DNA from: Fimbriimonadaceae bacterium | GTDB taxonomy: Bacteria; Armatimonadota; Fimbriimonadia; Fimbriimonadales; Fimbriimonadaceae | Length of the DNA stretch: 64,000 bases | Reading direction: 5' to 3' | NCBI GenBank assembly: GCA_023957775.1 | Contig: JAMLGR010000004.1 | Coordinates: 188,930 to 252,929, forward strand | Shown: positions 2,821 to 42,331 of the stretch, in pieces | Numbering within the stretch: position 1 is the first letter of the stretch | Layout of the letters: each line of letters begins with the position of its first letter | The notes under the pieces: generated by a model | Told to the model about the DNA's origin: nothing | What the model saw: the letters and a program-made list of their open reading frames with translations, nothing else | Databases searched by the model: none | Translations under genes and position numbers: made by a program

Positions 2821-3014
2821 GATTCAACTCCCTACGGGCCAGGCACGGCCGCCTGATCGCAAAGGGGCTTGTCCCCCCGGACCCCTCTCGATCAACGCAA
2901 TTGGCTCCGAGTCGAAACTCGTCGCTCGACCCGACCCATACTCGTAAGTGTAACGGCACTTTCGAAAAGATTCGCAGGCATGTTGCGGAGCGATGGAAAA
3001 CGGGGCGGGTGGCA

Positions 3015-6900: not shown

Positions 6901-6917
6901 GTGTCGAAGTATATCGG

Positions 6918-8495: not shown

Positions 8496-8505
8496 GGCGC
8501 AGGGT

Positions 8506-10410: not shown

Positions 10411-10614
10411 GAGCTTCCATGTGGAGGACGGGTGGGGGGACCCATATGTTCTGCGCGCAGGGCCAGAGTGCCAGGTGCTGCTGGCCGGGGCTTGCCGAGG
10501 GGTACAACGAAACTCGCGACCGTCGGCGACGCGCCACTTGAAGACGCTCCCGCTGCTTTCGAACGAAGAAGCGGTGCAGCCGGGACTCACCCCTGACACG
10601 GGTCGCACCTGCCG

Positions 10615-12117: not shown

Positions 12118-12157
12118 CGCTGTCCCTATTCGGCGATGCGGCGGCTTTCCCTGCTTG

Positions 12158-25896: not shown

Positions 25897-28800
25897 ATGG
25901 TATTGCTTCTCGCGCTTCTTGCTTCCGCTGCGGCTTCGACGCCGCTTGAGTTCGCAAAACAGGAGATCGCGGCCGCTGCCGGCTCGCGGGCGGGCGAGGT
26001 CGAACTGGCGGTGCGATCCTCGTTGGGTGCCGAGAGCTACACCATCGCTCCGCGCGGGGGCAAAGTGCGTATCGAGGGAGGCGATCCTGTGGGGGTCATG
26101 TACGGGGCGTTCGAGTTCGCCGAGCGGGTGAAAAACGACCCTGCAGGGGCATGGAGCGCCAAGGCGCAGGGCAAGCCGTACCTTCCCGAGCGGGGGCTGA
26201 ACCTCTTCCTCACACTTCCTTGGAACTACGCCAAGAACGACACCGAGTACGACCCGGCGGCCTTGGTGGATCCCAAGCGCTGGTGGTTCCAGAACGACGC
26301 GTACTGGACGTCCCTGCTCGACCTCATGGCCCACAGCCGCCTGAACTGGCTCGACATTCATGGCACGTGGGACATCAGCGTGACCGACGCGCCCAACCTC
26401 TACGCGTACTTCGTCACGGCCCCTTCGTTCCCCAAGGTCGGGGTGAGCCCGGAGATCAAGGCCGCCAACCTCGCGCAGCTCAACCACGTGATCGACATGG
26501 CGCACGCGCGGGGCATTCGCGTGAGCCTCATGGCGTATCAGGCCAGCCTCAGGATCCCCCAGAACCCGAACCCGCCATACGAGGGGACCGAGGAGAACGT
26601 CTACGCCTACACGCGCGAAGCCGTCGAGCAGATGATCCGCAACGCTCCGGGACTCGACTCGATCGGATTCCGGATCGGCGAGAGCGGGCACGGCGGGTCG
26701 TTCTTCACGTGCTACGGCGAGGCGGTCAAGAACTCGGGGCGGGACATCCCGCTGATCACGCGCAGTTGGGTCACGCGGCGCCAAAGCGTGCTGCCTCTGG
26801 CGCGCGCGTCGAAGGACTTCACCGTCGAGATCAAGTACAACGGCGAACACTGGGGCGCGCCGTACATGGTGGCCGGCGGCCGCGTGGCCAACTGGTACAG
26901 CTACTCCTTCGAGGACTACCTCAGCGACCCCGGCAAGCCCGAAACAAACGCCAAAACATGGCCAGGCTGGCCCGCCGAAGCCCCCGCCGAAGGCAGGTGG
27001 CCGAGCGAACCGTACAAGATCGTGTGGCAGGTGCGCGCGAACGGAACGCACCGCATCTTCCCCTTCTACAACCCCGAGTGGGTGCGCCGCTCGATCCTCT
27101 CGATGAAGATGGGCACGGCCTCGGGATACACGATCGAGGGTGAGGACGCCTATTTCCCGAAGCAGCCCGACTACTACATGGCCGACCCCTCGAAGAAGGG
27201 GTACGAGTGGATCCACCAGCGCGACGCGATGTACTGGACCACCTGGGGCCGCCTGGGCTATGACCCGACCGTGAAGGACGAGGTGTTCGACGCCGAGACC
27301 GCTCGGATGTTGGGCAAGGGGAGCGAGGCGCTCGTTCAGGCTTGGAAAGAGGCGAGCACCCTGTTGCCGTTGGCGTTCATGGCGTACGCGCTGGGGCCCG
27401 ACCACCGCAGCCACGCGCCGGAGCTGGAATGGGGTGGCGACACGCCCACGTTCATCCAGGGACAAGGGTTCGACACCCACTCGTTCCTTCCCATCAACGA
27501 GGAGTTGGCCAACGCGGCCACCGGAGGGTTGGACGGACGCATCGGCTCGTTTGCCACGTCCGAACTGCTGCGATTGCGCGCCAAGCGGGTTCGAGCAACG
27601 CTTGACCAGATCGCGGTTCCGGGCGGGCGCGGCCCCGAGATCGCCAACGCCTCGCGCCTGATGTCGGACCTTGCGGAGTACTACGCCCAGCGGCTACTTG
27701 CCGCCTGGTCGATGGCGAAGGTGGAATCTGTCTCCGGAGTGGCCCAGCGGTCTTCGGGTGATCCCGTGGATACCGACGCGATCCAGTGGGCGGCCGACGC
27801 GTCCCGGCGTCTTGCCGACAACCCGTTCTACAAGCCGTTCACCGATCGGCTTCGGATGCACACGAACACGTTTGCCTGGGCCCAGGAGACGGCCAAGGTC
27901 GCGGCGGAGTCCAAGCGCATTCTGTCGCTTCCCAAGGCTGTGCCTCCGATCTCGACGGAGGACCCGCTCCGTCCGGTTCGGTTTGGCAAGGCGAACCTTG
28001 AGTGGCGTGTGTCGGGTGGCAACATCGTCGTTCGCCTCGATGCACGGGGAAGCGACGCGGCGTGGCTGCTGGAGAAGCCCCTTCCGAGTTCGACGTTCTT
28101 CCACAAGGTCCCGATGCGACGAGTCGGCGACCACTTCGAGGCGACGTTCCCGCGCCAGAAGTGGGGGCACCAGATCGCCGTGGAGATCCGCGACGGCGGG
28201 GCTGTTTGGCGGGAGCCGTCCCCGGCGGAGGCCCGCCCCTACCTTGTCGTGCCCAGCCAACCGGGCCCCACCCCGCCGATCTACAGCGCCGAGGAGGCAA
28301 TGGCGTACCTCAAGCCTGAGGCGCTCGACCCCTCCCAGTACGGCGGGATGCTGCTCGGCACTCGGGCGTGGCGCTTCTTCACGTCGTTCGACAAAGCCAC
28401 GCAGCGCAAGCTGCTCGACCCCATCGAGCGCGGCATGCGTCTCGTGATCCTCCAGCAGGATTTCAACAAGTACAAGCTCGACTGGCTTCCCAAGCCGTTG
28501 AAGTTCGAGGGGGGCAACTGGGGCGTGTTCGACCCGGGAGGCCAACTCGGACTGTCCAAGGTCGAAACCGCCGACATCCTATGGCAGAGGTTCCTGCCGA
28601 GCGACGGGTGGGAGGTGTTCGGCAACGGCGGACTCGCCCGGCTGAAACTCGGCAAGGGAGAGGTGTGGGTCACCAGTGCCCGCCTCATGCAGCGCATGCA
28701 CATCCCGTCGGCCGCGAAGGCGTTCGTGGCGTTGCTCAGTCTGGGCGGGAAGACGAAGCCTACGGTGCTCATCGACAGCAACAGCGAGGGTGCGGACTAC

Positions 28801-30657
28801 TCGAGTTCGAACCATCCCGACCTGATGAACGCGCACGACATCCCGTTCCTGACCTTGGGCGAGGTGATCGCGCGGGAGCAGGGGATGGACTCCGCCACCG
28901 TGGTGCCGGGTCCCACCCTCGACGACGACGTGCTGGAGGGCAAGGGGTCTGCGGTCGTTGCGGCGTATCAGCGTGCGAAGGTCGTGCAGGCCGCCAGGCG
29001 GACCGTTCCGGCAGACAGGCCGGCGTTTCAACGCGAGCGCGCGCGCCGACGGGCCGAACTGATGCGCTCCCTCGGCCTCGACCCCCTGCCGTCGCGCACG
29101 CCTCTCAACGCACGCACGACCGGGGTGCTGCAACGGTCCGGCTACAAGATCGAGAAGGTCGTGTTCGAAAGCCGCCCTAAGTTCTATGTGACGGCCCACG
29201 TGTACGTGCCGGACGCGCCGGGCAAGCATCCGGTGATCATGAACGTGAACGGGCACTGGGCGCACAAGAAGGACGAGGACCGCATCCAGTTGCGCTGCGC
29301 GTTCCAAGCGCTGCGCGGCTACCTGGCGATCGCCATCGACAGCCCGGGGCACAGCTTCGAGGGCAACAGCCTTATCGAGCGCCGCGCCGAGGGCGAGCAC
29401 AACGACTGGTTCTTGGTCCAGGGAGGGTTGAACGCGACCGGCGTGTACGTGTGGGATGCGATGCGCGCGCTCGACTACGTGACGACCCGCCCCGACGCCG
29501 ACATGGCGCACGTGGGATTGACCGGCGCGTCGGGTGGCGGGTTGGCGACGCTCTACGCCTTTGCCGCGGACGATCGGTATCAGGCCGCGGTTCCGGTCGT
29601 GTACATGGCGAGCATGGAGTTGGCGCCGGACAACGGGTGCCTGTGCAACCACGTTCCGGGGACGCTGCAGATTGGCGACCGCTCCGACGTCATCGCGATC
29701 CAGGCGCCCAAGCCCGTGCTCCTGATGGGGGCGGAGAACGACGGCGAGTTTCCCGCCGACGCCACGAGGCTGACCGGCGCGAAGATGCAGCGGGAGTGGG
29801 GCCTCTTTGGCGCCTCGGGCGCGGTGACGACGCGGATCTTTCCTGGCGGGCACGATTACAGCAAACCCATGCGGGAGGCGATGATCGGGTTCTTCGACCA
29901 CGCCCTGCGCGGGGTGGGCGACGGTTCGCCCGTGCCCGAGCCCGCCCTCCAGGCGTTGGACGCCGAGGATCGGTCGCTGTTGGTCCTTCCCGATCCGCCG
30001 TCCGACGAGCGCACGATGCGCGAATTGGCGCGCGAAGCCCTTGGGCACCCCGGGCGTTACACCCTTGCCGACGTGAACGGAGGGTTGCCGCCGCGGAGCG
30101 ATCTGCGTTATGTGGAAACGGGCTCGGGCTCGAAGCGCGCCGTTGTCTTCGAGTCGGAACCCGGCCTGCGGACCCCGGGCATCCTCCTTCTGCCCAAGGC
30201 GAAGGTGGACACCGTGCGGATCGTCGTGGACGATCGTGGGAAGGCGGCCGCCGTCGCGGAGTTTGACGGGAAGCAACGAGCGGGGGAAGCCGTGCTGTTC
30301 TTGGACACGCTCGGCATCGGCGAATTGGCCGAGGTGAATCTGCGCTACGCCATCTATCTCGGCACGGCCGTCCCCTATACCGCGGGGTGGCAGATCGCAA
30401 GGGCCATCGAAGCGATGAAGCGGTACGGATCCGCCTTTGTGATCGAAGCCCGCGGACCCTTGGCCTCGATGGCCGCGCTGGACGCGGGCCTTCTCGCGCC
30501 CGATGCCGCGCGAATCGAGGCCAGCGGAGGCCTGCAGCGTTGGGAGGATGTGTTCGACACGTCGGCCAACCCGTTGCTGGTTCAGCCGCGCGCCAACCTG
30601 CTGCCGCCGCTGGATGCGCTGCGCGGATCCGTACCGAACGCCGTATGGCGCGGATGA
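25897..30657 (+). CDS. giant secreted multi-domain protein (1586 aa): N-terminal GH20b/GH67N-like + TIM-barrel hydrolase-like region, central unknown region, C-terminal alpha/beta-hydrolase (acetyl-esterase/S9-like)
   Basis: Signal peptide MVLLLALLASAAAS. Conserved block VMYGAFEFAERV followed by a TIM-barrel-like segment. C-terminal part has HVYVPDAPGKHPVIMNVNGHW and GLTGASGGG (GxSxG nucleophile elbow). RBS GGAGG 8 nt upstream of the ATG. Confidence 0.7.
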   Translation: MVLLLALLASAAASTPLEFAKQEIAAAAGSRAGEVELAVRSSLGAESYTIAPRGGKVRIEGGDPVGVMYGAFEFAERVKNDPAGAWSAKAQGKPYLPERGLNLFLTLPWNYAKNDTEYDPAALVDPKRWWFQNDAYWTSLLDLMAHSRLNWLDIHGTWDISVTDAPNLYAYFVTAPSFPKVGVSPEIKAANLAQLNHVIDMAHARGIRVSLMAYQASLRIPQNPNPPYEGTEENVYAYTREAVEQMIRNAPGLDSIGFRIGESGHGGSFFTCYGEAVKNSGRDIPLITRSWVTRRQSVLPLARASKDFTVEIKYNGEHWGAPYMVAGGRVANWYSYSFEDYLSDPGKPETNAKTWPGWPAEAPAEGRWPSEPYKIVWQVRANGTHRIFPFYNPEWVRRSILSMKMGTASGYTIEGEDAYFPKQPDYYMADPSKKGYEWIHQRDAMYWTTWGRLGYDPTVKDEVFDAETARMLGKGSEALVQAWKEASTLLPLAFMAYALGPDHRSHAPELEWGGDTPTFIQGQGFDTHSFLPINEELANAATGGLDGRIGSFATSELLRLRAKRVRATLDQIAVPGGRGPEIANASRLMSDLAEYYAQRLLAAWSMAKVESVSGVAQRSSGDPVDTDAIQWAADASRRLADNPFYKPFTDRLRMHTNTFAWAQETAKVAAESKRILSLPKAVPPISTEDPLRPVRFGKANLEWRVSGGNIVVRLDARGSDAAWLLEKPLPSSTFFHKVPMRRVGDHFEATFPRQKWGHQIAVEIRDGGAVWREPSPAEARPYLVVPSQPGPTPPIYSAEEAMAYLKPEALDPSQYGGMLLGTRAWRFFTSFDKATQRKLLDPIERGMRLVILQQDFNKYKLDWLPKPLKFEGGNWGVFDPGGQLGLSKVETADILWQRFLPSDGWEVFGNGGLARLKLGKGEVWVTSARLMQRMHIPSAAKAFVALLSLGGKTKPTVLIDSNSEGADYSSSNHPDLMNAHDIPFLTLGEVIAREQGMDSATVVPGPTLDDDVLEGKGSAVVAAYQRAKVVQAARRTVPADRPAFQRERARRRAELMRSLGLDPLPSRTPLNARTTGVLQRSGYKIEKVVFESRPKFYVTAHVYVPDAPGKHPVIMNVNGHWAHKKDEDRIQLRCAFQALRGYLAIAIDSPGHSFEGNSLIERRAEGEHNDWFLVQGGLNATGVYVWDAMRALDYVTTRPDADMAHVGLTGASGGGLATLYAFAADDRYQAAVPVVYMASMELAPDNGCLCNHVPGTLQIGDRSDVIAIQAPKPVLLMGAENDGEFPADATRLTGAKMQREWGLFGASGAVTTRIFPGGHDYSKPMREAMIGFFDHALRGVGDGSPVPEPALQALDAEDRSLLVLPDPPSDERTMRELAREALGHPGRYTLADVNGGLPPRSDLRYVETGSGSKRAVVFESEPGLRTPGILLLPKAKVDTVRIVVDDRGKAAAVAEFDGKQRAGEAVLFLDTLGIGELAEVNLRYAIYLGTAVPYTAGWQIARAIEAMKRYGSAFVIEARGPLASMAALDAGLLAPDAARIEASGGLQRWEDVFDTSANPLLVQPRANLLPPLDALRGSVPNAVWRG

Positions 30658-30687: not shown

Positions 30688-32304
30688 TCAGGGGGCTGGG
30701 CGATTTGGAAGTTGGAGCTGATCGAGGTACGCGTCCTCAAACCCGGGATCGAGATTGAGCTCCACCACCTCGACGCCATCGCGCACTCTCTCCAACTCCG
30801 CGAGCGTGTTGCGGTCGAGGAGTGCCAAGGTCGCGCCGGCCAGGGACGTGTTGCCCACCAGCTCGATCTGCGGGATCGTGAAGCCGGGGAGCAGGCCGCA
30901 CGCGATGGCGTTGCGCAGGTCCAGATGCATGCCGAAGCCGCCGGCCAGGTAGAGCGTCCTCACATCGGAGGGGGTCAGCCCGTGGCGGCGCAGGAGGGTG
31001 AGGATGCCGGCGGCGATCGCGGCCTTCGCCTGAAGGAGGCGCGCGACGTCGGCCTCGGACACGAGGATCGGCCGCTTGCCCTGGCCCCACGCGACACGGA
31101 CCGCCTGCCCGTGGGGGGTGTCCACCACGTGTTCGTCGAGGCCGTCCAAGGCCTGGAACCGACCCGTCGCGCCGAGCAGCCCGCACCTTCGGCCCTCGGC
31201 GAGCATGTCGACGTAGCCCGAGCCGCAAATGCCCGTCGGTTTCAGGGCTCGCGGCCCGATCTTCTCCCACCGGACGCAAAAGGGGGCCGTGCCCATCGCA
31301 ATCCGGGAAATCGCACCTTCGCCCGCCCGGATGCCTCCCGAGAGCCCCGAGCCCTCGAACGCGGGACCCGCCGCCGTCGCACAGGCTGAAGTCCGTCCCA
31401 CGTCGCGCAGAAGGATCTCGCCGTTGGTTCCCACGTCGACGAGGAGGCTGGGGCCGTCGTCGTAGAGCAGTCCCGAGGCAAAGGCCCCGGCCGCTATGTC
31501 CGCACCGATGTAGGCCCCGATCGACGGAAGGAGGCGAACGAACGCGCCGGCGGGCTCAAGACCGATGCGCTCGGCTTGGAACGGCTCGCGCGAGAGAAAA
31601 CGCGGCGCGAAGGGCGCCACGCCCATCGGGGAAGGGTCCTCGCCGACGAGCAGGTGGAGCATCGTCGTGTTTCCGGCGACGGTGTACCCGACGACCCGCT
31701 CCGGGTCTCCGACCGCCTGACGGACCAGCGGCCGCAGGGTTTGCTCGACGAGGGACGCCTGCATTCGTCCGAGCATCGCGGGGTCGGTTGCGCACAGGTT
31801 GATCCGGGTCAGCACATCGTCGCCAAAGTGCATCTGTCGGTTGAATCCCGAGGCTTTGCCGACGATTTCGCCGGTCGCCAGGTCCACCGCCTGCAGCGCA
31901 ACGGTCGTGGTCCCCACGTCGACGGCGATTCCGAGCCCGTCTGCGGCGAGAGGATCGTGCGCGTACGGGACGTTGATGCGGTAGCTGTCGAGAACTTGGG
32001 GCGCGTACGCCAGGCGAGAGCGTTGAGGGATTCGGATGGCGGCGAACTCCCCAGTGGGCCGATAGCGGCAGCCTCGGACTTCCACGGAATCTCCCCGGGA
32101 CACGGTCAACGAGGTGCCGTCTGCGTGTTCCAGGGTTCCTCGCACCAGTTCGACGAGGCACCCCGCGCACATGTCCTTCTCGCCGCAGCGCGTGTTGAGT
32201 GCGAGGTCGTGGCCGCGCAGGATCTGGGCGAGGCTGCGCCGGGCCTGGTCTTGGGTCAGAACGAGCTCCCGCGTGCCATCTGGGAGCTGGACCTCAATCC
32301 GCAT
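30688..32304 (-). CDS. RACo-type reductive activator of corrinoid proteins (N-terminal 2Fe-2S ferredoxin + ASKHA/DUF4445 ATPase domain)
   Basis: N-terminal C-x5-C-x2-C...C ferredoxin motif (RCGEKDMCAGC ... RGC). Large ASKHA-like remainder with glycine-rich phosphate loops (DVGTTTV, DVGTNGE). Confidence 0.7.
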   Translation of the reverse strand: MRIEVQLPDGTRELVLTQDQARRSLAQILRGHDLALNTRCGEKDMCAGCLVELVRGTLEHADGTSLTVSRGDSVEVRGCRYRPTGEFAAIRIPQRSRLAYAPQVLDSYRINVPYAHDPLAADGLGIAVDVGTTTVALQAVDLATGEIVGKASGFNRQMHFGDDVLTRINLCATDPAMLGRMQASLVEQTLRPLVRQAVGDPERVVGYTVAGNTTMLHLLVGEDPSPMGVAPFAPRFLSREPFQAERIGLEPAGAFVRLLPSIGAYIGADIAAGAFASGLLYDDGPSLLVDVGTNGEILLRDVGRTSACATAAGPAFEGSGLSGGIRAGEGAISRIAMGTAPFCVRWEKIGPRALKPTGICGSGYVDMLAEGRRCGLLGATGRFQALDGLDEHVVDTPHGQAVRVAWGQGKRPILVSEADVARLLQAKAAIAAGILTLLRRHGLTPSDVRTLYLAGGFGMHLDLRNAIACGLLPGFTIPQIELVGNTSLAGATLALLDRNTLAELERVRDGVEVVELNLDPGFEDAYLDQLQLPNRPAP

Positions 32305-33052
32305 CTGGGGGCGCGGCCTCCACCACTCGCTCGTCGGCCGTCATGCGGAGTGTCTGCCCCGGCTCCAGCACGAGGAAGCGCTCGGCGTCCCATTCGCCAT
32401 TCAGGAGGGCCTTCAGCAGTTCGGGATCGCCCTGTTGCCGGTCGAAGCTCCACCCGAGCCAATGGGCGCACTTCTTCGTGAACGCGACGTCCTCTTCCGT
32501 CGCGCCTGGGCCGAGGTCCACGTAGGTCGCTCGGTCGTAGGTCGAGAACCAGTGCTGTTCGGTCTCCATGAGGTAATCCGCGTTGTCCTCGCCGTACTTC
32601 TCCGCGTACTCTGCGCGGAGCAGACGGTGCCGCTCCTCGCCCGGGGGCAGGTGGTGCTTGTTCCAGCCGGGGCTGTACCAGTAGGTCCCCGGCGCCTGGC
32701 GCACATACTCGGCGTACCGTTCTTTGCTGCCCAGCAACACGGTGATGCAGTCGTGGGCTCGCGGGATCACCAGTTTCGCCCTCGCTGCCCGCACGCCCTC
32801 CGTGCCCCGGCTGCACAGCCCGTAGCCCAGCACGATGGCCTCGGCCTCGGTCTCCCTCTCGGCCTTGTCGATCGCGTCCTGGAGTTCGCGTCGCAAGCGC
32901 TCCGGTTCGTTGTGCAGGCCTTGGGGCATCAGGTCGATGCGGACGATGTGCTCCAGTCCGCGGGCAAAGTGCGCGATCTCGGTTTCGAGAACGGAGCAGG
33001 TGATGACCACCGTGCGGGGGTTCCGATTGTTGGCCTTGGATCTGTGCGCCAC
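32294..33052 (-). CDS. DUF1638 domain protein (family typically linked to corrinoid methyltransferase clusters)
   Basis: Composition and length typical of DUF1638. Overlaps the RACo start by 11 bp, so the two form one operon. Divergent from the corrinoid operon. Confidence 0.55.
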   Translation of the reverse strand: MAHRSKANNRNPRTVVITCSVLETEIAHFARGLEHIVRIDLMPQGLHNEPERLRRELQDAIDKAERETEAEAIVLGYGLCSRGTEGVRAARAKLVIPRAHDCITVLLGSKERYAEYVRQAPGTYWYSPGWNKHHLPPGEERHRLLRAEYAEKYGEDNADYLMETEQHWFSTYDRATYVDLGPGATEEDVAFTKKCAHWLGWSFDRQQGDPELLKALLNGEWDAERFLVLEPGQTLRMTADERVVEAAPPDAD

Positions 33053-33176
33053 CGTGGGGATGATACGAGGTTTCTGCCCTCGGTTTGTCGCCGTTTTGGC
33101 CTACAGGGGGGATCGTCTTGGCTCGGGTATTACGGAGTGGTCGTCCTCGTGACGATCGCAAGGAGGTGCATCCTCG

Positions 33177-33815
33177 ATGAATCAGTCGCAGCCCCTCACC
33201 GACGCCGTAATCGCGGGGAACCGGAACGAAGCGACCCGGCTCACGTCCGAAGCGCTCGCGGAGGGCAACGATCCCCGGGAGGTGCTCGCCGCGTTGGTGG
33301 CCGGGATGGACGAGGTGGGCGGACGGTTTCAACGCAACGAGGCCTTCGTACCGGAGATGCTGATCGCCGCGCGGGCGATGAAGGAGAGCATGGCCGTGCT
33401 CGAACCGGTCCTCGTGAAGGCCGGAATCCGCCCCGAGCGCACTGCGGTGATCGGCACGGTGCTGGGCGATCTCCACGACATCGGCAAGAACCTGGTGGCG
33501 ATGATGTGGCGGGGCGCCCACTTCGAGGTCGTCGACCTTGGCACCAACGTCCCGCCCGAGCGGTTCGTCGAGGCCGCGCGGACGCACGACGCCGACTTGA
33601 TTGGCCTATCGGCTCTGCTGACGACCACGATGCCGTCCATGAAGGAGACGATCCAGGCCATCCGCAGCGCCGGTCTCAGGGCCAAGGTCATCATCGGCGG
33701 CGCCCCGATCACGCCCGAGTTCGCGCAGCAGATCGGAGCGGATGCGTTCGCGGCCGACGCCGCCAGCGGTGTTGAGATCGCAAGGGCGATGTTGACGCAC
33801 GGAGACCCCCCCTAG
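33177..33815 (+). CDS. B12-binding corrinoid protein (MtaC/MtbC-like methyltransferase cognate corrinoid protein)
   Basis: DxHxxG cobalamin-binding motif (GDLHDIGKNLV) with following Rossmann-like B12-binding domain and N-terminal helical cap. AAGGAGG RBS upstream. Confidence 0.85.
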   Translation: MNQSQPLTDAVIAGNRNEATRLTSEALAEGNDPREVLAALVAGMDEVGGRFQRNEAFVPEMLIAARAMKESMAVLEPVLVKAGIRPERTAVIGTVLGDLHDIGKNLVAMMWRGAHFEVVDLGTNVPPERFVEAARTHDADLIGLSALLTTTMPSMKETIQAIRSAGLRAKVIIGGAPITPEFAQQIGADAFAADAASGVEIARAMLTHGDPP

Positions 33816-33820
33816 GCCCC

Positions 33821-34900
33821 ATGCGTACCTCGCGCCTCTCCAGCCGCGAACGGGTCGCGCGCATGTTCAAGAGGCAGGATCACGACTGCATCCCCCGCGC
33901 CGACAGCTTCTGGACTGAAACTTCCGAACGCTGGAGGAACGAGGGGCAGGAGGGCGACCTCAACGCCTTTCTCGGAACCGATTTCAAGGCGCTTTCGTGG
34001 AGCGATCCCCGGCCGTTTCCCGGGCAGAAGCGCCTTGTGTCCGAAGACGGTAGGACGCAGACCTTCGTGGACGAGTGGGGGAACACGGTGCGTTATTGGA
34101 AACATCGCTCCGGCACCCCCGAGCACGTCGCGTTCGGGTGCACGTCCCGACGCGAGTGGGAGGAGACGTACAAGCCTGCGCTGTTGGCGGCTTGGCCGTT
34201 CGTCAACCCCTACGCCTCGTATCGAGACTTCGAAAGCGGTCGGCGCAACGGCCTCTGGACCTACCTGTGTGGTTTGGAGACGTTCGAGATGACCCGCCGT
34301 CAGTTGGGTGACGAGGTGTTCCTCATCGGGATGATCGAGGATCCCGAGTGGATCGTCGATGTGTCGAGAACGATGACCGGGCTTGTCCTCAGGGATTTCG
34401 ACCTCCTGATGGACCGCGGCGTGAAACCCGACGGGGTCTGGATCTACGGCGACATGGCGTATCGGCGCGGCACGATGTGTTCGCCCGCGATGTACCGGGA
34501 GTTGGTCTGGCCCGATCACAAGCGCATGGCCGATTGGGCGCACGCGCGCGGTCTGCCCTTCATCTTCCACACGGACGGCGACGTCAAAGGGGTGCTGGAG
34601 CACTACATCGAAGCGGGATTCGACTGCCTTCAGCCGCTGGAAGCGAAGGCGGGGATGGACGTCCGATCGTTGTCCCCTGTTTATGGCGAGCGACTGGCCC
34701 TGTTCGGGAACATCGACGTGATGGTGATGGCCACCAACGACCTGGAACTCGTCGAGCACGAAGTCCGGACCAAGCTCCAGGCGGGCATGGCCACCCGAGG
34801 ATACGCGTATCACTCGGACCACTCGGTTCCCCCGACCGTGAGCTGGGAGACCTACGAGTTCGTGATCGATCTGGTCGATCGCCATGGGAACTACGATTGA
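33821..34900 (+). CDS. URO-D/MtaA-family methyltransferase paralog 1 (putative substrate:corrinoid methyltransferase)
   Basis: ~359 aa, the size of the uroporphyrinogen decarboxylase/MtaA family. N-terminal SRERVARMFKRQDHDCIPR matches the family N-terminal helix. HTDGD in the position where MtaA carries its H-x-C zinc ligands. Confidence 0.7.
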   Translation: MRTSRLSSRERVARMFKRQDHDCIPRADSFWTETSERWRNEGQEGDLNAFLGTDFKALSWSDPRPFPGQKRLVSEDGRTQTFVDEWGNTVRYWKHRSGTPEHVAFGCTSRREWEETYKPALLAAWPFVNPYASYRDFESGRRNGLWTYLCGLETFEMTRRQLGDEVFLIGMIEDPEWIVDVSRTMTGLVLRDFDLLMDRGVKPDGVWIYGDMAYRRGTMCSPAMYRELVWPDHKRMADWAHARGLPFIFHTDGDVKGVLEHYIEAGFDCLQPLEAKAGMDVRSLSPVYGERLALFGNIDVMVMATNDLELVEHEVRTKLQAGMATRGYAYHSDHSVPPTVSWETYEFVIDLVDRHGNYD

Positions 34901-34901
34901 G

Positions 34902-36032
34902 ATGAACGACCGCCAGCGATTCTTGGCCACGATGCGGTACCAGACGCGCGATCGGGTGCCGATCTGCGACTTCGGGTTCTGGTCGGAGACGATCGAGGTC
35001 TGGAAGGACCAGGGTTTGCCCGAGCACTGGACGGACACCACGACCTCCGACTTCCTCGGGATGGACCGCTTTGAGGGACCGGTTGGGATTCGAGATTCTC
35101 TCGACCCCTCGTTCGAGGAGTTCGTCCTCGAGGACCGTGGGGATCAGGAGGTCGTGCAGGGCGGGGACGGCGTTCGCACCCTGCGGCACAAGTTCATGAG
35201 CTCCATTCCCATGCACGTGGGGCACCTTCTCACCGATCGCGAGAGCTGGAACAAGCACTACAAACCTCGACTCGACCCCTTGTCCCCCGCGCGCTTTCCG
35301 GCCACTTGGGAAACGCGGGTCGAACGCTGGAAGAGGCCTGATCGGCCCTACTGTCTCACCCTTCCCGGCGGCAGCCTGTACGGCTGGATCCGAAACTGGA
35401 TGGGGGTGGAGAACGTGTCGTACTCGGTCTACGACGATCCCGCCTGGTTCGAGGAGATGGTGGAGACCGTGTGCGTGTTGATCGAGGGGATCCTGACCCG
35501 GGCATTCGAGTCGGGCGTCGCCTTCGACTCGTGCGGGATGTGGGAGGACATGTGTTACTCCGGCGGCCCGCTGCTGGGTGTGGATCACTTCAAACAGTAT
35601 CTGGTGCCTCGCTACCGGCGCATCACCGACCTCTTGCGCAAAAACGGGGTGGAGGTGATCTGGCTCGATTGCGACGGCAACATCGAGAAGCTCATGCCTT
35701 TGTGGCTGGACGCCGGCGTCAACTGCATGTTCCCCATCGAGATCGGCACGTGGGGCGCGGATCCGGTGCGCTACCGCAAAGAGTACGGCAAGGCGCTGTT
35801 GATGATGGGCGGCTTCGACAAGCACATCCTCGCCGGACCGAAGCCCGGCATCGTCGAGGAGGTCGAGCGGTTGACACCGCTGGTCGAGGAGGGCGGCTAC
35901 ATTCCGTTCTGCGACCACCGGGTGCCTCCGGACGTCCCGCTCGAGAACTACCTCTTCTACCTCTCGCTGGCCCGCGAGAGGTGGGGCAAGGGAGTGAATC
36001 TCAAACCGATGTGGGAGGTGGGGGGCGCGTGA
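34902..36032 (+). CDS. URO-D/MtaA-family methyltransferase paralog 2
   Basis: MNDRQRFLATMRYQTRDRVPICDF family-typical N-terminus. ORF track starts it at 34884 (MGTTIE..), overlapping paralog 1 by 17 bp. The ATG at 34902, 1 bp after the upstream stop, is preferred. Confidence 0.7.
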   Translation: MNDRQRFLATMRYQTRDRVPICDFGFWSETIEVWKDQGLPEHWTDTTTSDFLGMDRFEGPVGIRDSLDPSFEEFVLEDRGDQEVVQGGDGVRTLRHKFMSSIPMHVGHLLTDRESWNKHYKPRLDPLSPARFPATWETRVERWKRPDRPYCLTLPGGSLYGWIRNWMGVENVSYSVYDDPAWFEEMVETVCVLIEGILTRAFESGVAFDSCGMWEDMCYSGGPLLGVDHFKQYLVPRYRRITDLLRKNGVEVIWLDCDGNIEKLMPLWLDAGVNCMFPIEIGTWGADPVRYRKEYGKALLMMGGFDKHILAGPKPGIVEEVERLTPLVEEGGYIPFCDHRVPPDVPLENYLFYLSLARERWGKGVNLKPMWEVGGA

Positions 36033-37126
36033 CCGAGCGCGAGAACCTGCTGCGCATGCTGGCCGGTGAGCGGGCCAGCCACCTGCCGCTCGACGTCTGG
36101 CTGACCGCACCGTCGCTTGCCATGGTCGAGGCGCACCGGGGCACGCGGGACCCGGTGGAGGCTCTTGGCCTCTCGGTGGAACGGGTGGGACCGCGGTTTC
36201 CCGCGCGTCCCGACGCCTGGCGCGAGTCTTACCGCGAGCTAGGCTTCGCCGTCCACCCGGAGGCGATTTTGGGTGCGCTCGGTACGGTGGACGACGTGCC
36301 GCCCGCCCACTCGCTCGGCGATGCCTATCACCTGCTGGAGATGCGCCACCCGCTCTCGGGAGAGGTGACGGTCGCCCAACTCGCGAGCCTTCCGTTTCCG
36401 GACGTGGACTCGCCGGAGCCCTACCGGCATCTCCCCGACCACTTCGCCGAGATCCACTCCAAAGGCATCACGTCGATCGGTCAGATGGACTGCACGATGT
36501 TCGAGATGACCTGGTACCTGCGCGGCATGGATCGGGTGTTCCTCGATCTTGTCGATGGAACCGGGGCGGCGGATTGGTTGCTCGATTGGTTCACCCACCG
36601 TTCGGAGGTCGGGGTGGCCCACTACGTGCGGGCGGGGGCGGATATTGTGTGGCTCGGCGACGATGTCGGCACCCAGCGCGGGATGATGATGGCGGTCCCC
36701 TTCTGGCGCGAACACCTGAAGCCCCGCCTCAAGCGCGTGGTCGCGGCCGCGCGCAACGCCCAGAACCGCGAAGTATGGATCGCCTACCACTCGGACGGCG
36801 ACATTCGCCCCATCATCCCCGACCTGATCGAGATCGGGATCGACATCCTGAACCCGGTGCAGCCCGAGTGCATGCCGCTCGAAGAGGTCGTGGCCGCCTA
36901 CCGGGAGCGCCTCGCGTTTTGGGGAATGATCGGCACGCAGACCACGATGCCTTTCGGCACTCCGGACGACGTCCGTGCGGCCGTGGGGCGGGTGAGAGAT
37001 TTCGCCTGCGGCGGTTGCAGGATGGTGGTTTCTCCCACCCACGCCATCGAACCCGACGTGCCGTGGCGCAACCTGGAGGCGTTGATCGAGGATGTGAAGA
37101 CGCCGCTCTTCGGAGAGCGGCTTTGA
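36029..37126 (+). CDS. URO-D/MtaA-family methyltransferase paralog 3
   Basis: GTG start overlapping the upstream stop (GTGA). VTERENLLRMLAGERASHLPLD family-typical N-terminus. HSDGD motif. The upstream part of ORF 35471.. is Arg/Gly-rich out-of-context sequence. Confidence 0.7.
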   Translation: MTERENLLRMLAGERASHLPLDVWLTAPSLAMVEAHRGTRDPVEALGLSVERVGPRFPARPDAWRESYRELGFAVHPEAILGALGTVDDVPPAHSLGDAYHLLEMRHPLSGEVTVAQLASLPFPDVDSPEPYRHLPDHFAEIHSKGITSIGQMDCTMFEMTWYLRGMDRVFLDLVDGTGAADWLLDWFTHRSEVGVAHYVRAGADIVWLGDDVGTQRGMMMAVPFWREHLKPRLKRVVAAARNAQNREVWIAYHSDGDIRPIIPDLIEIGIDILNPVQPECMPLEEVVAAYRERLAFWGMIGTQTTMPFGTPDDVRAAVGRVRDFACGGCRMVVSPTHAIEPDVPWRNLEALIEDVKTPLFGERL

Positions 37127-38007
37127 ATTGGCTCGGGGCTGCCCTGGCGGAGGGTCCGTTGCTCGGGGACGGGGCGATGGGCACGATGCTGTTTCGGGCA
37201 GGCTTGGCGCCGGGGGCGAGCGCCGAGTTATGGAACGTCGAGCAGCCCGATCTTGTGGCAGGGGTGCATCGCGGCTACGCGGAAGCGGGCTCGGCGTTTG
37301 TGACGGCCAACACGTTCGGCGCGACGCCGCTCGCGTTGGCCCGCCACGGGCTTGCCGATCGCACGGCGGAGTTGAATGCGGCCGCGGTGGCCCTCGCGCG
37401 CGAGGCAGTGGGCGACCGCGTTCGGGTGATGGGCGACATCGGCCCCTTCGGCGGTTTCCTCGAGCCTTACGGCGAGGCGTCGACCAAGGCGGTCGAGGAG
37501 ACGTATCGCGCGCAGGTCGCCGCGCTTCGGGTGGCGGGAGCGGATGGCGTTCTCGTCGAGACGATGGTGGACCCGAACGAACTGACGATCGCCGTTCGCG
37601 CCGCGCGCCAGGCCGGGGATTGGCCCGTGCTCGCGAGCTACGCCTTCCAGCGGATGGGCGCGGAGTTCCGGACGATCATGGGGACCGGCGTCGCCGAGGC
37701 CCTTGGGGCCGCCTTCGATGCCGGGGCCGACGCCGCGGGCGCCAACTGCGGCACCAACCTCTCTTTGGACGACTACTTGCAGCTCGCCGACGAGTTGGTG
37801 GCCGCGGCCAAGGGGCGGCCGGTGGTCTTGCAACCCAACGCCGGGCCTCCGCGCGCTTCGGGCACGGAGATCGAGTACTCCGCGACGCCCCAGGAGATGG
37901 GGAAGTGGGCGGCACGTGCGGCCGAGGTCGGCGTGCGCGTGTTGGGAGGGTGCTGCGGCACGACCCCCGCGCATGTGGCCGCCATGGCGCAGGTTTTGCG
38001 GCGCTAG
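37123..38007 (+). CDS. stand-alone homocysteine S-methyltransferase domain protein (MetH N-terminal/BHMT/MmuM-type, zinc)
   Basis: LLGDGAMGTML N-terminus and GGCCGTTPAHV zinc-ligand motif typical of Hcy-binding domains. Proposed TTG start at 37123, overlapping the upstream TGA, with GGAGAG 5 nt upstream. The alternative ATG at 37177 would truncate the conserved N-terminus. Confidence 0.7.
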   Translation: MNWLGAALAEGPLLGDGAMGTMLFRAGLAPGASAELWNVEQPDLVAGVHRGYAEAGSAFVTANTFGATPLALARHGLADRTAELNAAAVALAREAVGDRVRVMGDIGPFGGFLEPYGEASTKAVEETYRAQVAALRVAGADGVLVETMVDPNELTIAVRAARQAGDWPVLASYAFQRMGAEFRTIMGTGVAEALGAAFDAGADAAGANCGTNLSLDDYLQLADELVAAAKGRPVVLQPNAGPPRASGTEIEYSATPQEMGKWAARAAEVGVRVLGGCCGTTPAHVAAMAQVLRR

Positions 38008-39056
38008 CCGGACTCGGAGGGCAAGCCCTTCTGAAGCTTCGCGAGGGCAGAGGCGGCCTCCATGACTTCGACCGGCACGGCCAGCACCACGGTGTTCGAC
38101 GCCGTGGGTCCAAGGCCGTCGATCGTCTGTAGGGTGCGGAGCTGCATCGCACCGGGGCTCTCCATCATCGTGTGCGCCGCGGCCGCGAGGTTGTCCGCTG
38201 CCAGGCGGTCCCCTTCGGACTTCGTGATGTTCGCGCGCTTTTCGCGCTCGGCGCTCGCCTGCCGGCTCATCACCTTCTTCAGCTCCTCCGGCAGGATGAT
38301 GTCCTGGATCCGGATGCCGTCCACCTCGAGTCCCCAGTGCTCGGTCTCTTTGATCAGCATCTGCTCAATCTGGTGCCCCAAACCCTCGCGCTCGGTGAGA
38401 ACCTCGTCGAGGGTGCGCCCGCCGATCACATCGCGAAGCGCTGCGCGCGCGTACTGCACGATGGTCCACATGTAGTCCTGGACGTTGATCACCGCCTGAT
38501 CGGGACGCACGACGCGCAGGAAGACCACGCCGTCGATGGCGATCGGCACGTTGTCGCGGGTGATCGCCTCCTGTCGGGGAATGTCCACGGACAACACGCG
38601 GGTGTCCACGGATCGGATCTGTTCCAGCAGTGGAATGACTCCGTACACACCAGGCCCGGTGAGTCGGTGGAATTTCCCGAGCCGGAACACCAGGACCCGT
38701 TCCCACTGCGCCGCAAGTTTGATCGCGGAGGCGGCGAGCCAACTCGCCACGAACCAAGCGGTCGGCATCAGGAGCGCCCTTGGTTCTTCCGTGAGGTCTT
38801 TGCCAAAGAGCACCCAGCCGATGCCGCTGAGAATGAGAAAGACGATAAGCGAGAGGTAGTTGACGATCATGGTGGTCCCCGATGAGAGCCTGTGCTTTTG
38901 ACGCAGCGAGGTGAAGTTGGACGTGGAGAATGCAGAGGGTGACTCGCGGAAGGGGAACGCCTCGCCCCCGTCTCCGGTCTTGGAGGGTGCCTGGGCGTTC
39001 TGTTGCGCTTGCTCCGAGAGCGCCTGGAGAGTCTTCCGGAGCTGGTCGAAGTCCAT
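38004..39056 (-). CDS. SPFH/band-7 (stomatin/HflC-like) membrane protein with low-complexity N-terminal extension
   Basis: TM helix ([21 protein letters not shown]) followed by an SPFH domain. The 62 codons upstream ([22 protein letters not shown]..) keep high GC3 and so are probably translated. The alternative start is 38870. Shares a CTAG stop tetranucleotide with the convergent Hcy methyltransferase gene. Confidence 0.65.
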
Positions 39057-39189
39057 CTGTGCTTCAGGATTCGACTGGCTCACGAGTGGTTCCTGCGTAG
39101 GTTGGCGATGCAATCGGGCCAGGGGGCCGTTCGCTTTGCGGATCACGGCGTCAAGAGGGTTGCGCGCAGGGTGCGCCGAACTCACCCTC

Positions 39190-41574
39190 ATGTCCCTCCT
39201 TGCCGCCACATTGCTCGTCTCAACTTTGATGGCCGCTCCTCACGAGGCGTTGACGCTTTGGTACAAGCAACCCGCGGCCAACTGGAACGAGGCGCTGCCG
39301 ATCGGCAACGGGCGCATCGGCGCGATGGTGTTTGGCGGGGCTGCGGAAGAGCGGCTGCAGCTCAACGACGACACGTTGTGGGAGGGCGCGCCGAAGGACC
39401 GGGTGAACCCGAAGGCCCTTGCGGCGCTGCCCGAGGTGCGGCGGCTGATCTTCGAGGGCAAGAACGAGGAGGCCCGCGCGCTCGCCGACCAAGCCATGAT
39501 GGGCGTGCCGCCAAGAATCGACTCGTACCAAACTCTGGGGGACCTGCACGTGCGCTTCGCCGACGGTGCGGTCTCGGGCTCTTACGAACGGACGCTCGAT
39601 CTCGACCGGGCGCTCGCCACCGTTCAAAGCGGTGGGTTGACGCGGACGGCGTTCGCCTCGGCCGCGGACGACGTGATCGTGCTGAACCTCCAGGCGACCC
39701 TCGGCGGTTCGTTCTCTGCCGAAGTGGAGATGGACCGGCCCGAGAACTTCAAGACAGAGCCCTTCGGCAACGACGGCCTGCGCATGGCCGGCCAGGCCGG
39801 CGACAAAGGGGCGAGATACGACGCCCTGCTGCGGGTGAAGATCGAGGGCGGCACGATCACGGGCGCCGCGAACAGCCTCCGCATCCAGGGCGCCAAGTCG
39901 GCCACGGTTTACCTGACCTCCAAGACGGACTACGATCGCCGGCATCCGGGCGTCCCCTTGAAACGAGACCGCATGAAGGCGTGCGAGGACACGCTGGCCA
40001 AGGCGATGGCGAAACCGTATGCGAAGCTCGTCTCCGACCACGTTCGGGAGCACCAACGTCTGTTTCGGCGCGTCTCGCTCGATCTGGGCTCGAACGAACT
40101 GGCCAATCTGCCGACCGACGAGCGGCTCAAAGCGGTGCAGGCCGGCAAATCCGACCCCGCGCTCGAGGCGCTGTACTTCCAGTACGGGCGGTATCTGCTC
40201 ATGAGCTCGTCGCGGCCCGGAGACATGCCTGCGAACCTCCAGGGGATCTGGTGCCAGGACCTCAAGGCGCCCTGGAACGCGGACTACCACACGAACATCA
40301 ACCTTCAGATGAACTACTGGCCAGCGGAGGTCGCCAACCTCGGCGAGTGCCATCTCCCTCTGTTCGACCTGATGGAGAGCCTTGTGGGGCCCGGCGAGGA
40401 CACCGCAAAACGCATGTACGGCGCGCGGGGCTGGGTGGTGCACCACCTCACCGACGTGTGGGGCTTCACCGTGCCGGCGGACGGCGTTTGGGGCGTGTGG
40501 CCGGTGGGAGCGGCGTGGCTGGCGCAGCACCCCTGGGAGCACTTCCTGTTCACGCAGGACCGAAAGTTCCTGAAGGAGCGCGGGTACCCGTTGATGAAGA
40601 GCGCCGCGCAGTTCCTGCTCGACACTCTGGTCAAGGCCCCGGCGGGCAGTCCCGTGGCGGGCAAGCTGGTCACCAACCCGTCGCACTCTCCCGAGAACTC
40701 GTTCCGCAAGCCCGACGGCACGACCTCGCAGTTCACCTACGCCGCGACCATGGATCTCGAGATCGCGCACGACCTGTTCGCCAACTGCGTGTCGGCCATC
40801 GACGAACTGGGCAAGGGGGACAAGGGGTTCGACGCCGCCTTTCGTGCGGAGCTCATGTCGGCGCTCGATCGGTTGGCGCCGCTTCAGATCAGCAAGAAGA
40901 GCGGCCGGCTGCAGGAGTGGGTCGAGGATTACGACGAGCCCGAGCCCGGGCACCGGCACATGTCGCACCTGTACGGTCTCCATCCCGGCCACGAGATCAC
41001 GCTCGAGGGCACTCCGGAGTTGGCCGCCGCGGCGCGCAAGTCGCTGGAGTTTCGCTTGAGCCACGGGGGCGGGCACACGGGTTGGAGCCGCGCGTGGATC
41101 GTGAACTTCTGGGCGCGGTTCCGCGAGCCCCAGTTGGCTCACGAGAACCTTGTGGCCCTGCTCTCGCACTCGACGTTGCCGAACCTGTTCGACAACCATC
41201 CGCCCTTCCAGATCGACGGCAACTTCGGCGGTTGCGCGGGGATCGCGGAGATGCTGCTCCAGAGCCAGAGCGGGGAGATCCGTCTGCTTCCCGCGCTGCC
41301 CAAGGCGTGGAGCGACGGGTCTGTGACGGGCCTTCGGGCGCGCGGCGGATTCGAGGTGTCGATGGCCTGGAGCTCCGGACGGTTGCAGTCGGCGGTGGTG
41401 AAGGCTGTTTCGGCCGGCAGCTGCACGGTGCGCCTCCCCGGGGGCGCGAAGGTGGCCTCCGTGTCGGTCGACGGTAGGCCCGCAATGGCAAATCAGGAGG
41501 GAGACGGGTTGGAGCTCTCGCTGAGGAAGGGCCAGACGGCGACGGTGCGCTTCGGGCTCGGATCCAATGGGTGA
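39190..41574 (+). CDS. alpha-L-fucosidase, glycoside hydrolase family 95
   Basis: [28 protein letters not shown]...LQLNDDTLW is a classic GH95 N-terminus. ~795 aa. Signal peptide [16 protein letters not shown]. The ORF track's upstream extension was discarded. Confidence 0.9.
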
Positions 41575-41598
41575 GAGACGATACTGAGGACGTGTTGA

Positions 41599-42228
41599 AT
41601 GACGAGAGATCCATCTTCTTCTGAGATTCCGGGCGGCTATCACGACGGCTCCCGCCAGCTCCAAGATCGCTTCGACAGCCGCCGAATCGCGGATCGGCTG
41701 GAGCAGGTGACCGCCCATACGGTGTTCACCGATGGCGACCGTGAGTTCATCGCCCGCTCCTCGATGTTCTTTTTCGCCACTGCGAACCAAGAGGGGTGGC
41801 CGGAGTGCTCCTACAAGGGCGGGATGCCCGGCTTCGTGAGGGTGCTCGATACCCGCACGCTGGCCTTTCCCGACTACGATGGGAATGGAATGTTCCGGAG
41901 TCTGGGCAACGTGGCGGTGAACCCCCGCGTCGGGCTGCTCTTCCTCGACTTCGAGAGACCGGCCCGCCTGCGGATCAATGGCCTTGCCACTTTGCACGAG
42001 GAGGACCCGTTGCTGTCTGAGTTTCCAGGCGCGCAATTGATCGTCCGGGTGCGCGCCGAGCGCATCTTCCCGAACTGTCCGCGCTACATCCATCGGCTGC
42101 GGTTGGTCGAGCACTCCGTATACGCGCCCACCCACGATCGAACACCACCTGAGCCCGAGTGGAAGGAGATGGAGGAGTTCCGGGACGCACTGCCCGGAAC
42201 GTCGGATCGACGCGCTGAGACAACTTAG
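41599..42228 (+). CDS. pyridoxamine 5'-phosphate oxidase-like FMN-binding split-barrel protein
   Basis: Composition and length resemble the PNPOx-like family (FFFATANQEGWPECSYKGG...VRVRAERIFPNCPRY). Confidence 0.5.
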   Translation: MTRDPSSSEIPGGYHDGSRQLQDRFDSRRIADRLEQVTAHTVFTDGDREFIARSSMFFFATANQEGWPECSYKGGMPGFVRVLDTRTLAFPDYDGNGMFRSLGNVAVNPRVGLLFLDFERPARLRINGLATLHEEDPLLSEFPGAQLIVRVRAERIFPNCPRYIHRLRLVEHSVYAPTHDRTPPEPEWKEMEEFRDALPGTSDRRAETT

Positions 42229-42331
42229 AGCGACAATGGGTCGTACGAGTCCGGTGTTTCGATTCGTGCCACCCAAGGGCTGGAAACTTGTGAAGGTGGA
42301 GGGGCTCCCCATCTGCCGTAAACTCGTGTCC

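Follow-up and report, generated by a model that had tools for sequence, protein, structure and literature searches.

Candidate donor-specific methyltransferases in a Fimbriimonadaceae corrinoid operon: three URO-D-family paralogs with an invariant carboxylate/imidazole set at the columns of the MtaA cysteine ligands

The stretch of 64,000 nucleotides analyzed here (GenBank assembly GCA_023957775.1, contig JAMLGR010000004.1, positions 188,930–252,929; hereafter the window, numbered from its first letter) comes from a Fimbriimonadaceae bacterium of the phylum Armatimonadota and encodes three consecutive members of the URO-D family in one operon with a corrinoid protein and a homocysteine S-methyltransferase module. 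In these paralogs, designated par1, par2 and par3, the cysteine ligands of the MtaA type are replaced by an invariant set of carboxylate and imidazole residues and not merely lost, and each paralog represents a conserved family of its own. We consider it probable, with moderate confidence, that the three proteins are methyltransferase I (MT I) enzymes, each specific for its own methyl donor, which load a single corrinoid protein from which the methyl group is then passed to homocysteine.

The original prediction of three back-to-back URO-D-family genes at positions 33821–37126 was borne out by profile searches. The genes for par1 (33821–34900, plus strand, 359 aa), par2 (34884–36032, plus strand, 382 aa from the first ATG) and par3 (36029–37126, plus strand, 365 aa) match Pfam family PF01208 (URO-D) with E values of 2e-16, 1.4e-11 and 9.8e-15, respectively, all three above the gathering score of 23.9 bits, and the predicted fold is the (beta/alpha)8 barrel of the URO-D superfamily. 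The probable true start of par2, supported by GenBank and by the family consensus, is the ATG at 34902, which gives a protein of 376 aa; the GTG start of par3 at 36029 overlaps the par2 stop codon. With identities of 27% between par1 and par2, 28% (over 154 aa) between par1 and par3, and 23% (over 91 aa) between par2 and par3, the three are old paralogs and not recent tandem duplicates. A beta-rich N-terminal insertion is common to par1 and par2 and is missing in par3. In a Fimbriimonadaceae metagenome-assembled genome (GCA_020636875.1), par1 and par2 have counterparts with 100% identity.

Identity of the three with HemE was rejected: par1 scores 20.1 bits against TIGR01464, for which the cut-off is 303, par2 and par3 give no match, and a regular-expression search for the HemE motif PxWxMRQAGR found it in none of the three. 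With the family profiles described below, the score of B. subtilis UroD is between -1.7 and 11.3 bits, so a placement within HemE, which the original prediction had named as a result that would speak against it, was not found. Membership in the MtaA/CmuA family was likewise rejected, the TIGR01463 scores being 29.8, 19.3 and 28.8 bits against a cut-off of 235. The N-termini (RERV, RQRF and RENL) belong to the 'RER...' helix that is seen in VdmB, MecE and CmuA but not in UroD.

We take the zinc ligands of MtaA, the methylcobamide:coenzyme M methyltransferase, to be H-x-C-x(n)-C; a literature search for the ligand residues returned no relevant paper. In the HMMER alignment with Methanosarcina mazei MtaA (4AY7; phmmer E value 1.4e-5 for par3), 'HICGN' of MtaA lies over 'HSDGD' of par3 (H254-S-D256-G-D, 36788–36802, plus strand) and 'APGCGIAP' lies over 'SPTHAIEP', which places T337-H338 (37037–37042, plus strand) at the 'G-C' of 'PGCGIAP'. 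In the MAFFT alignment, the motifs of par1 and par2 fall in the same columns as those of par3 and the MtaA ligands. In par1, HTDGD (H250-T-D252-G-D, 34568–34582, plus strand) occupies the H-x-C columns, and D333-H334 (34817–34822, plus strand) puts H334 in the column of the third ligand, the Cys of 'PGCG'. In par2, (L)DCDGN (D262-C263-D264-G-N, 35667–35681, plus strand) has Asp, not His, in the first ligand column. Because HMMER for par3 and MAFFT for par1 and par2 give the same columns, the alignment to MtaA, originally made by eye, can be considered correct, and the three quoted motifs, HTDGD, LDCDGN and HSDGD, do lie at the ligand position. All three proteins have Asp where H-x-C has its Cys and His where MtaA has the distal Cys; the His of H-x-C is retained by par1 and par3, and par2 has Asp there. 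A His/Cys/Cys set conserved in all three was not found in the alignments to MtaA, and with H-T-D...H, D-C-D...H and H-S-D...H in place of His-x-Cys...Cys the proteins do not have the zinc ligands of the MtaA/CmuA family of thiol-methylating methyltransferase II (MT II) enzymes.

The replacing residues are strictly conserved. For each paralog, the 120 best relatives were taken out of 2600–3200 clusters with E < 1e-5, giving families of 121 sequences each (identities of 57–100% for par1, 63–100% for par2 and 46–95% for par3). Invariant in all 121 sequences of the par1 family are D211 (after strand 5), H250, D252, E274, D333 and H334; in the par2 family, D222 (after strand 5), D262, C263, D264, E286, D344 and H345 (signature D222 / D262-C263-D264 / E286 / C343-D344-H345); and in the par3 family, D212 (after strand 5), H254, D256, Q278, E280, T337 and H338, with C281 beside the site present in 119 of 121. 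The family motifs can be summarized as H-T-D...E...D-H for par1, D-C-D...E...D-H for par2 and H-S-D...Q...T-H for par3, strand 6 bearing H/D-x-D, while E/Q follows strand 7 and H follows strand 8. The earlier suggestion that the zinc site is lacking is right as far as MtaA-type Cys ligands are concerned and needs correction as far as the site itself is concerned, which is occupied by an invariant His/Asp-x-Asp...Glu/Gln...His set.

In the AlphaFold2 model of par1 (predicted local distance difference test score, pLDDT, 94), each of these residues coincides with, or directly follows, the C-terminal end of one of the strands 205–210, 247–251, 269–272 and 328–330, at the usual active-site end of the barrel. 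The best fold match of the model is MtaA (4AY7/4AY8; template modelling score 0.69–0.70), and E274 can be matched to the Glu close to the zinc of MtaA only to within one residue. Nothing useful came from profile searches in which narrow family alignments (A1 and A2) were run against the PDB. The replaced site could still bind a metal. Among known enzymes, zinc has been reported in the vanillate and veratrol O-demethylases and was absent from MtvB and CdmB, and the need for zinc among O-demethylases of the URO-D fold is not settled (PMC13222342).

Comparison of the three families with characterized enzymes used reference sequences from the supplement of the CdmB paper (PMC13222342), with MtaA represented by a 161-residue fragment. 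The top characterized references, by profile and by BLAST, were the vanillate and veratrol O-demethylases OdmB and VdmB, at 46–75 bits with all three family profiles; when the Acetobacterium dehalogenans paralogs are counted together with OdmB and VdmB, the range is 42–79 bits. The best reference for par3 was an uncharacterized A. dehalogenans paralog (WP_026394596.1), which scored 168 bits with the par3 profile. Scores were lower for the MtaA fragment (5–44 bits, the 44 being that of par3) and for CmuA and MecE, and lower still, about 0–21 bits, for CdmB, MtvB and MtoB. A crude neighbor-joining tree recovered par1 and par2 as sister families (90% bootstrap) beside the Odm/Vdm group and placed par3 with WP_026394596.1 (40% bootstrap); its deep nodes, such as the joint par1/par2 and Odm/Vdm group at 26%, are unreliable. 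In the ligand columns, OdmB of both species examined has H-S-D, like par3 and par1, whereas VdmB, CmuA, MecE and MtaA have H-x-C.

The preference for an MT I over an MT II role, originally read from the motifs, is thus upheld in part. The best characterized relatives are indeed ether-cleaving enzymes, and one of them shares H-S-D; however, MT I and MT II enzymes cannot be told apart by whether they have H-x-D or H-x-C. VdmB, CmuA and MecE are MT I enzymes that carry H-x-C, so the motif does not prove an MT I role. The one pointer to ethers as the donors is the distant relationship to OdmB and VdmB, which suggests them. Demethylation of methylated sulfur, selenium or nitrogen compounds or of halomethanes, in place of ethers, is a rather improbable alternative. 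The URO-D superfamily does contain MT I enzymes for chloromethane and dichloromethane as well as proposed methyl-sulfur and selenide enzymes (PMC13222342; PMC10418091), the related proteins that carry out such reactions or have been proposed to do so being MtsA, CmuA, MecE, CdmB and the type-1 Mlp proteins, and a link to homocysteine and methionine would suit sulfur metabolism. However, CmuA and MecE retain the H-x-C...C ligands that par1–par3 lack, CdmB, MtvB and MtoB score near zero with the three family profiles, and the top-scoring characterized relatives are aryl-ether demethylases.

The three genes belong to an operon that is accompanied by a divergent gene pair (30688–38007), with the activase and DUF1638 genes on the minus strand and the genes for the corrinoid protein, par1–par3 and the homocysteine module on the plus strand. 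The corrinoid (cobalamin-binding) methyl-carrier protein (33177–33815, plus strand, 212 aa) matches Pfam B12-binding_2 (1e-20) and B12-binding (3e-30), resembles MtgC/MtbC in NCBIfam at scores under the equivalog cut-offs, and carries the DxHxxG motif as DLHDIG (residues 98–103, nucleotides 33468–33485). The ATP-dependent corrinoid reductive activase is of the RACo/AcsV type (30688–32304, minus strand, 538 aa), with matches to Pfam RACo_C_ter (4e-68), Raco_middle (4e-42) and Fer2 (1e-3) and to NCBIfam AcsV (3e-93); its N-terminal [2Fe-2S] motif consists of C40, C46, C49 and C79. Next to it lies the gene for a DUF1638 protein (32294–33052, minus strand, 252 aa; Pfam PF07796, 3.6e-41). The last gene of the operon encodes a stand-alone homocysteine S-methyltransferase module of the MetH type (PF02574; 37123–38007, plus strand, 294 aa), the TTG start of which overlaps the par3 stop codon, so that overlapping start and stop codons occur within the operon.

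This module appears to be the one protein of the operon that is built to methylate a thiol. It matches Pfam S-methyl_trans at 1.3e-62, its best solved relative is the homocysteine domain of Thermotoga maritima MetH (1Q7M; 4.9e-42), and its only three cysteines, C209, C277 and C278, align with the zinc ligands of 'NC' and 'GGCCGTTP'. With an intact Zn(Cys)3 site, it is likely the thiol-methylating (MT II) partner, and the separate thiol-methylating step that the original prediction called for can thereby be supplied from within the operon. Several features of a split methionine synthase are present, namely a separate corrinoid protein, a PF02574 module with the three zinc cysteines, a RamA-like activase and DUF1638, but the methyl-tetrahydrofolate module is not: tblastn found no gene for a pterin-binding (PF00809) methyltransferase in the window, and none for methylenetetrahydrofolate reductase (MTHFR), for the methanol-specific MT I enzyme MtaB or for formyltetrahydrofolate synthetase (FTHFS). 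In Phaeobacter, the split MetH genetically requires DUF1638 and a RamA-like protein (PMC5764234), and in Phaeobacter and Ruegeria the corrinoid protein of the split methionine synthase also serves glycine-betaine demethylation (PMC5764234; PMC12478193).

The operon can be read as the following reaction sequence. The RACo-type activase, aided by DUF1638, would spend ATP and an electron to bring the protein-bound cobalamin to Co(I). The methyl donors, most likely methyl ethers, would differ from one URO-D paralog to the next, and the leaving group would be polarized by the invariant acid/imidazole residues that line the top of the barrel, possibly with a metal held by non-thiolate ligands. Transfer of the methyl group to Co(I) would constitute the MT I step, and the MetH-type module with its Zn(Cys)3 site would then carry out the MT II step, moving the methyl group from methyl-Co(III) to homocysteine to give methionine and Co(I). 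The idea of three donor specificities sharing one corrinoid protein, already part of the original prediction, fits the three separately conserved families and the single corrinoid protein.

Relatives of the three paralogs are found in Armatimonadota, Verrucomicrobiota, Planctomycetota and Chloroflexota. When species-representative genomes were scanned with a pattern, par1 relatives turned up in at least 589 of them, including Fimbriimonadaceae, Capsulimonadaceae, Opitutae and other Verrucomicrobiota, Phycisphaerae, Tepidisphaerales and other Planctomycetota; Fontivita pretiosa is a cultured carrier. To examine gene neighborhoods, 81 loci (numbered with an L) were fetched around genes of the par1 family, and 290 URO-D open reading frames (ORFs) were called in them. 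The corrinoid protein was present in 50 loci, the activase in 39, DUF1638 in 29 and the homocysteine module in 26. The usual order has activase and DUF1638 on one strand and, on the other, the corrinoid protein followed by par1, additional paralogs and par2, with the homocysteine module and par3 at the end; most par1-family genes lie immediately downstream of the corrinoid protein gene, with the activase gene divergent. One Opitutaceae locus has about 10 URO-D genes around one corrinoid protein.

By their site signatures, the URO-D proteins of these clusters fall into about 10 subfamilies. One of them, VdmB-like with H-x-C, is absent from the window, and so is the true MtaA-type subfamily with H-I-C...G-C ('MHICGN'...'GAGCEIP'), which accounts for about 30 ORFs in the 81 loci (for example, L012:15390-16412, L013:2583-4779 and L014:4059-5100). 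Because MtaA-type paralogs exist in sister clusters and not here, the Cys-less state is best seen as a trait of differentiated subfamilies. Synthesis of coenzyme M is not known from bacteria of these phyla. In 34 loci there is a family of about 371 aa that has no Pfam match and often alternates with URO-D genes (for example, L001:14763-15971, L036:3788-4903 and L085:8810-9976); since hhalign matches it to the par1 family with 93% probability over 137 columns, it is probably a very divergent URO-D-like barrel. Another conserved family, of about 425 aa and found in 24 loci (for example, L016:4452-5729 on the minus strand and L013:1267-2640), has neither a Pfam match nor significant similarity to URO-D. 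Elsewhere, a par2 ortholog with 66% identity (L003:10001-11137, Caldilineaceae) stands beside genes for a SIS-domain protein, a phosphotriesterase-family protein and a four-carbon acid-sugar kinase-like protein, and a par3 ortholog with 49% identity (L005:10001-11104, Phycisphaeraceae) stands beside AraC and PhyH genes.

Accessory genes connect the clusters with one-carbon metabolism. MtaB is encoded in 17 loci, FTHFS in 8, a pterin-binding methyltransferase in 7 and MTHFR in 5, and a fused homocysteine-methyltransferase/MTHFR protein was found in at least 7 Opitutae loci. In planctomycete loci, the pterin-binding methyltransferase and MTHFR lie between the corrinoid protein and par1, which is the classical O-demethylase layout. 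Loci L028, L035, L039 and L083 (approximately 5800–12300) contain genes for the corrinoid protein, MTHFR (with DUF5981), the pterin-binding methyltransferase, a 416-aa protein, par1, a par3-like and a VdmB-like protein, that is, a complete folate-linked demethylase set with no homocysteine module. A Pfam census of 141 flanking genes in the 81 loci was led by AraC regulators and enzymes of C1 and folate metabolism such as MTHFR.

Several of these observations weigh against the proposed donor-specific MT I role. The closest characterized enzymes are only 22–30% identical to the paralogs, and the three MT I enzymes with H-x-C, mentioned above, deprive the ligand columns of diagnostic value. About a quarter of the par1-family loci have no corrinoid protein within 10 kb, and lone orthologs of par2 and par3 also occur with no corrinoid protein within that distance. 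No recurrent transporter, glycosidase or catabolic gene was seen among the 141 flanking genes, which leaves the neighborhoods without a pointer to the substrate. Finally, the homocysteine module adjoins par3 in 12 of the 15 loci that have a par3-type gene, so a role of par3 on the acceptor side is possible.

The members that lack a nearby corrinoid protein bring up the reading that the paralogs are corrinoid-independent, metal-dependent barrel enzymes (decarboxylases, hydrolases or isomerases) that cluster by chance with a split methionine synthase. Sets of the His/Asp/Glu/His kind are typically seen in metal sites with a hydrolytic or Lewis-acid function, and the fold alone cannot tell HemE from MtaA. 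We nevertheless regard this explanation as very improbable, given that the majority of par1-family genes lie directly 3' of the corrinoid protein gene with the activase divergent, that up to about 10 paralogs surround a single corrinoid protein in one cluster, and that the N-terminal helix is that of VdmB, MecE and CmuA and the HemE motif is absent.

The main rival reading, which we consider unlikely, places one or more of the paralogs on the acceptor side, par3 being the most plausible candidate. It would work there as an MT II enzyme for a non-thiol acceptor, in bidirectional methyl exchange, or by assisting the homocysteine module as partner or adaptor. In the window, too, par3 adjoins that module, and this arrangement often includes overlapping start and stop codons. 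It is also the paralog nearest to MtaA (44 bits to the 161-residue fragment), it keeps the nearly invariant Cys281 beside the site, and the window has no pterin-binding module. Since par3 forms a lineage of its own, whose place beside the homocysteine module is conserved, its role could differ from that of par1 and par2. On the other hand, neither of the Cys ligands of the thiol-methylating enzymes is kept in par3, and no URO-D-family enzyme known to methylate folate was found. In L038, a par3 ortholog occurs alongside a pterin-binding methyltransferase; because the two co-occur there, par3 does not simply replace that module. MtoA was considered as a precedent for folate methylation by par3, but this role was rejected, as MtoA is MtrH-like and not a URO-D protein (PMC8630106).

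Taken beyond the window, the proposal of donor-specific MT I enzymes leads to a wider one, which we put forward tentatively and hold to be rather doubtful: a route by which heterotrophs of the Armatimonadota, Verrucomicrobiota and Planctomycetota that are not acetogens would turn methyl groups of environmental methyl ethers into methionine independently of folate. It would run through a battery of URO-D demethylases with a previously undescribed non-thiolate H/D-x-D...E...H catalytic or metal site, acting on methoxylated aromatics, methylated sugars or methanol, and through one corrinoid protein directly to homocysteine. Demethylation of methylated sugars in particular, which was prompted by a neighboring GH95 gene, is unsupported, as no consistent glycoside hydrolase or transporter was seen among the flanking genes. 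If the reading of the operon is right, the same demethylation chemistry would be common in polysaccharide-degrading phyla of soil and freshwater, given the number of species genomes that carry the par1 family alone, and about 10 separately conserved URO-D subfamilies would be used per cluster type. Wiring to a MetH-type module would tie environmental demethylation to methionine supply and to the demand for vitamin B12. The invariant residue set offers a defined target for the question of how the URO-D fold activates a non-thiol substrate.

Other features of the window touch the operon less directly. At the 3' end of par3, just before the TTG of the homocysteine module (37102–37121, plus strand), lies a terminator-like G+C-rich hairpin of 8 bp that has a TTCG loop and is followed by TTTGAATT; it could be an attenuator or an mRNA-stability element. 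With one site of this type observed in the scanned region against 3.0 expected in shuffled sequences, the count is within chance and the hairpin is not significant alone. An Rfam scan of the window found no riboswitch or other RNA, and a promoter scan found no promoter. At lower coordinates, the activase gene is adjoined by an ORF of 1586 aa (25897–30657) with weak AXE1 and peptidase S9-like (esterase-like) Pfam marks at its C-terminus. On the other side, an SPFH/Band-7 gene (38004–39209, minus strand) converges on the homocysteine module and overlaps its end, and the GH95 glycosidase gene (38911–41574, plus strand) follows. Because the GenBank versions of these two proteins are shorter (254 aa for SPFH and 774 aa for GH95), the starts of the long ORFs are probably too far upstream. 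Between 28000 and 43000, both strands contain many long antisense or overlapping ORFs, such as 28579–30276 and 39220–42627 (both minus strand), which have neither third-position G+C nor homolog support and are a usual by-product of the 65% G+C content.

Corrinoid-dependent O-demethylases are known, with few exceptions, from acetogens, from organohalide respirers and from a single methanogen, in which the methyl group goes to folate or methanopterin, and we found no prior description of this cluster type in the searchable literature. The OdmB and VdmB systems of Acetobacterium dehalogenans and Desulfitobacterium hafniense, which are the MT I components of vanillate and veratrol O-demethylation, resemble the present one in belonging to the URO-D superfamily, in having several paralogs per genome, and in having a cognate corrinoid protein and an ATP-dependent activase of the RACo type. 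The first ligand columns of OdmB likewise read H-S-D, but the fourth holds Gln or Leu, where His is invariant here. Their hosts are acetogens and organohalide respirers, as opposed to Armatimonadota, Planctomycetes–Verrucomicrobia–Chlamydiae (PVC) bacteria and Chloroflexota, and their MT II component is a pterin-binding folate methyltransferase, whereas the window has a homocysteine module, accompanied by DUF1638. The coenzyme M methyltransferases MtaA, MtbA and MtsA (4AY7) differ in their zinc ligands, His-x-Cys...Cys against the H/D-x-D...H of par1–par3.

The split MetH and MtgBCDE of Phaeobacter and Ruegeria (PMC5764234; PMC12478193) have the same partner set of corrinoid protein, PF02574 module, RamA-like activase and DUF1638, and one corrinoid protein common to methionine synthesis and to demethylation of another donor, as is proposed here. 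Their donor enzyme is MtgB, a member of the MttB superfamily acting on glycine betaine, and the pterin-binding MtgD is essential, whereas the window has three URO-D candidates. In CdmBCA and in the MtvB and MtoB systems (PMC13222342; PMC8630106), a URO-D MT I enzyme is likewise combined with a corrinoid protein, an MT II enzyme and an activase, and these enzymes provide precedents for zinc-free MT I; they have no His or Asp at the ligand columns, and their MT II enzymes are pterin-binding or MtrH-like. The nearest published concept is that of the type 1 mlp clusters (Kountz and Balskus 2023, PMC10418091), which also combine several URO-D paralogs of distinct lineages with one corrinoid protein and a bacterial-type activase and also lack a folate methyltransferase in the cluster. 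Those clusters belong to obligate anaerobes, mostly Firmicutes, encode MtaA-like proteins, and have a different biology, being linked to the metabolism of methyl-sulfur compounds and selenides; here, the Cys ligands are absent and a homocysteine module is paired with the paralogs. The Mlp proteins (Mlp2 and Mlp3) are about 30% identical to coenzyme M methyltransferases and fall inside their clade, whereas par1–par3, judged by their lower scores to the MtaA fragment (5–44 bits) than to the O-demethylases and by their missing ligand Cys residues, are nearer to the O-demethylases.

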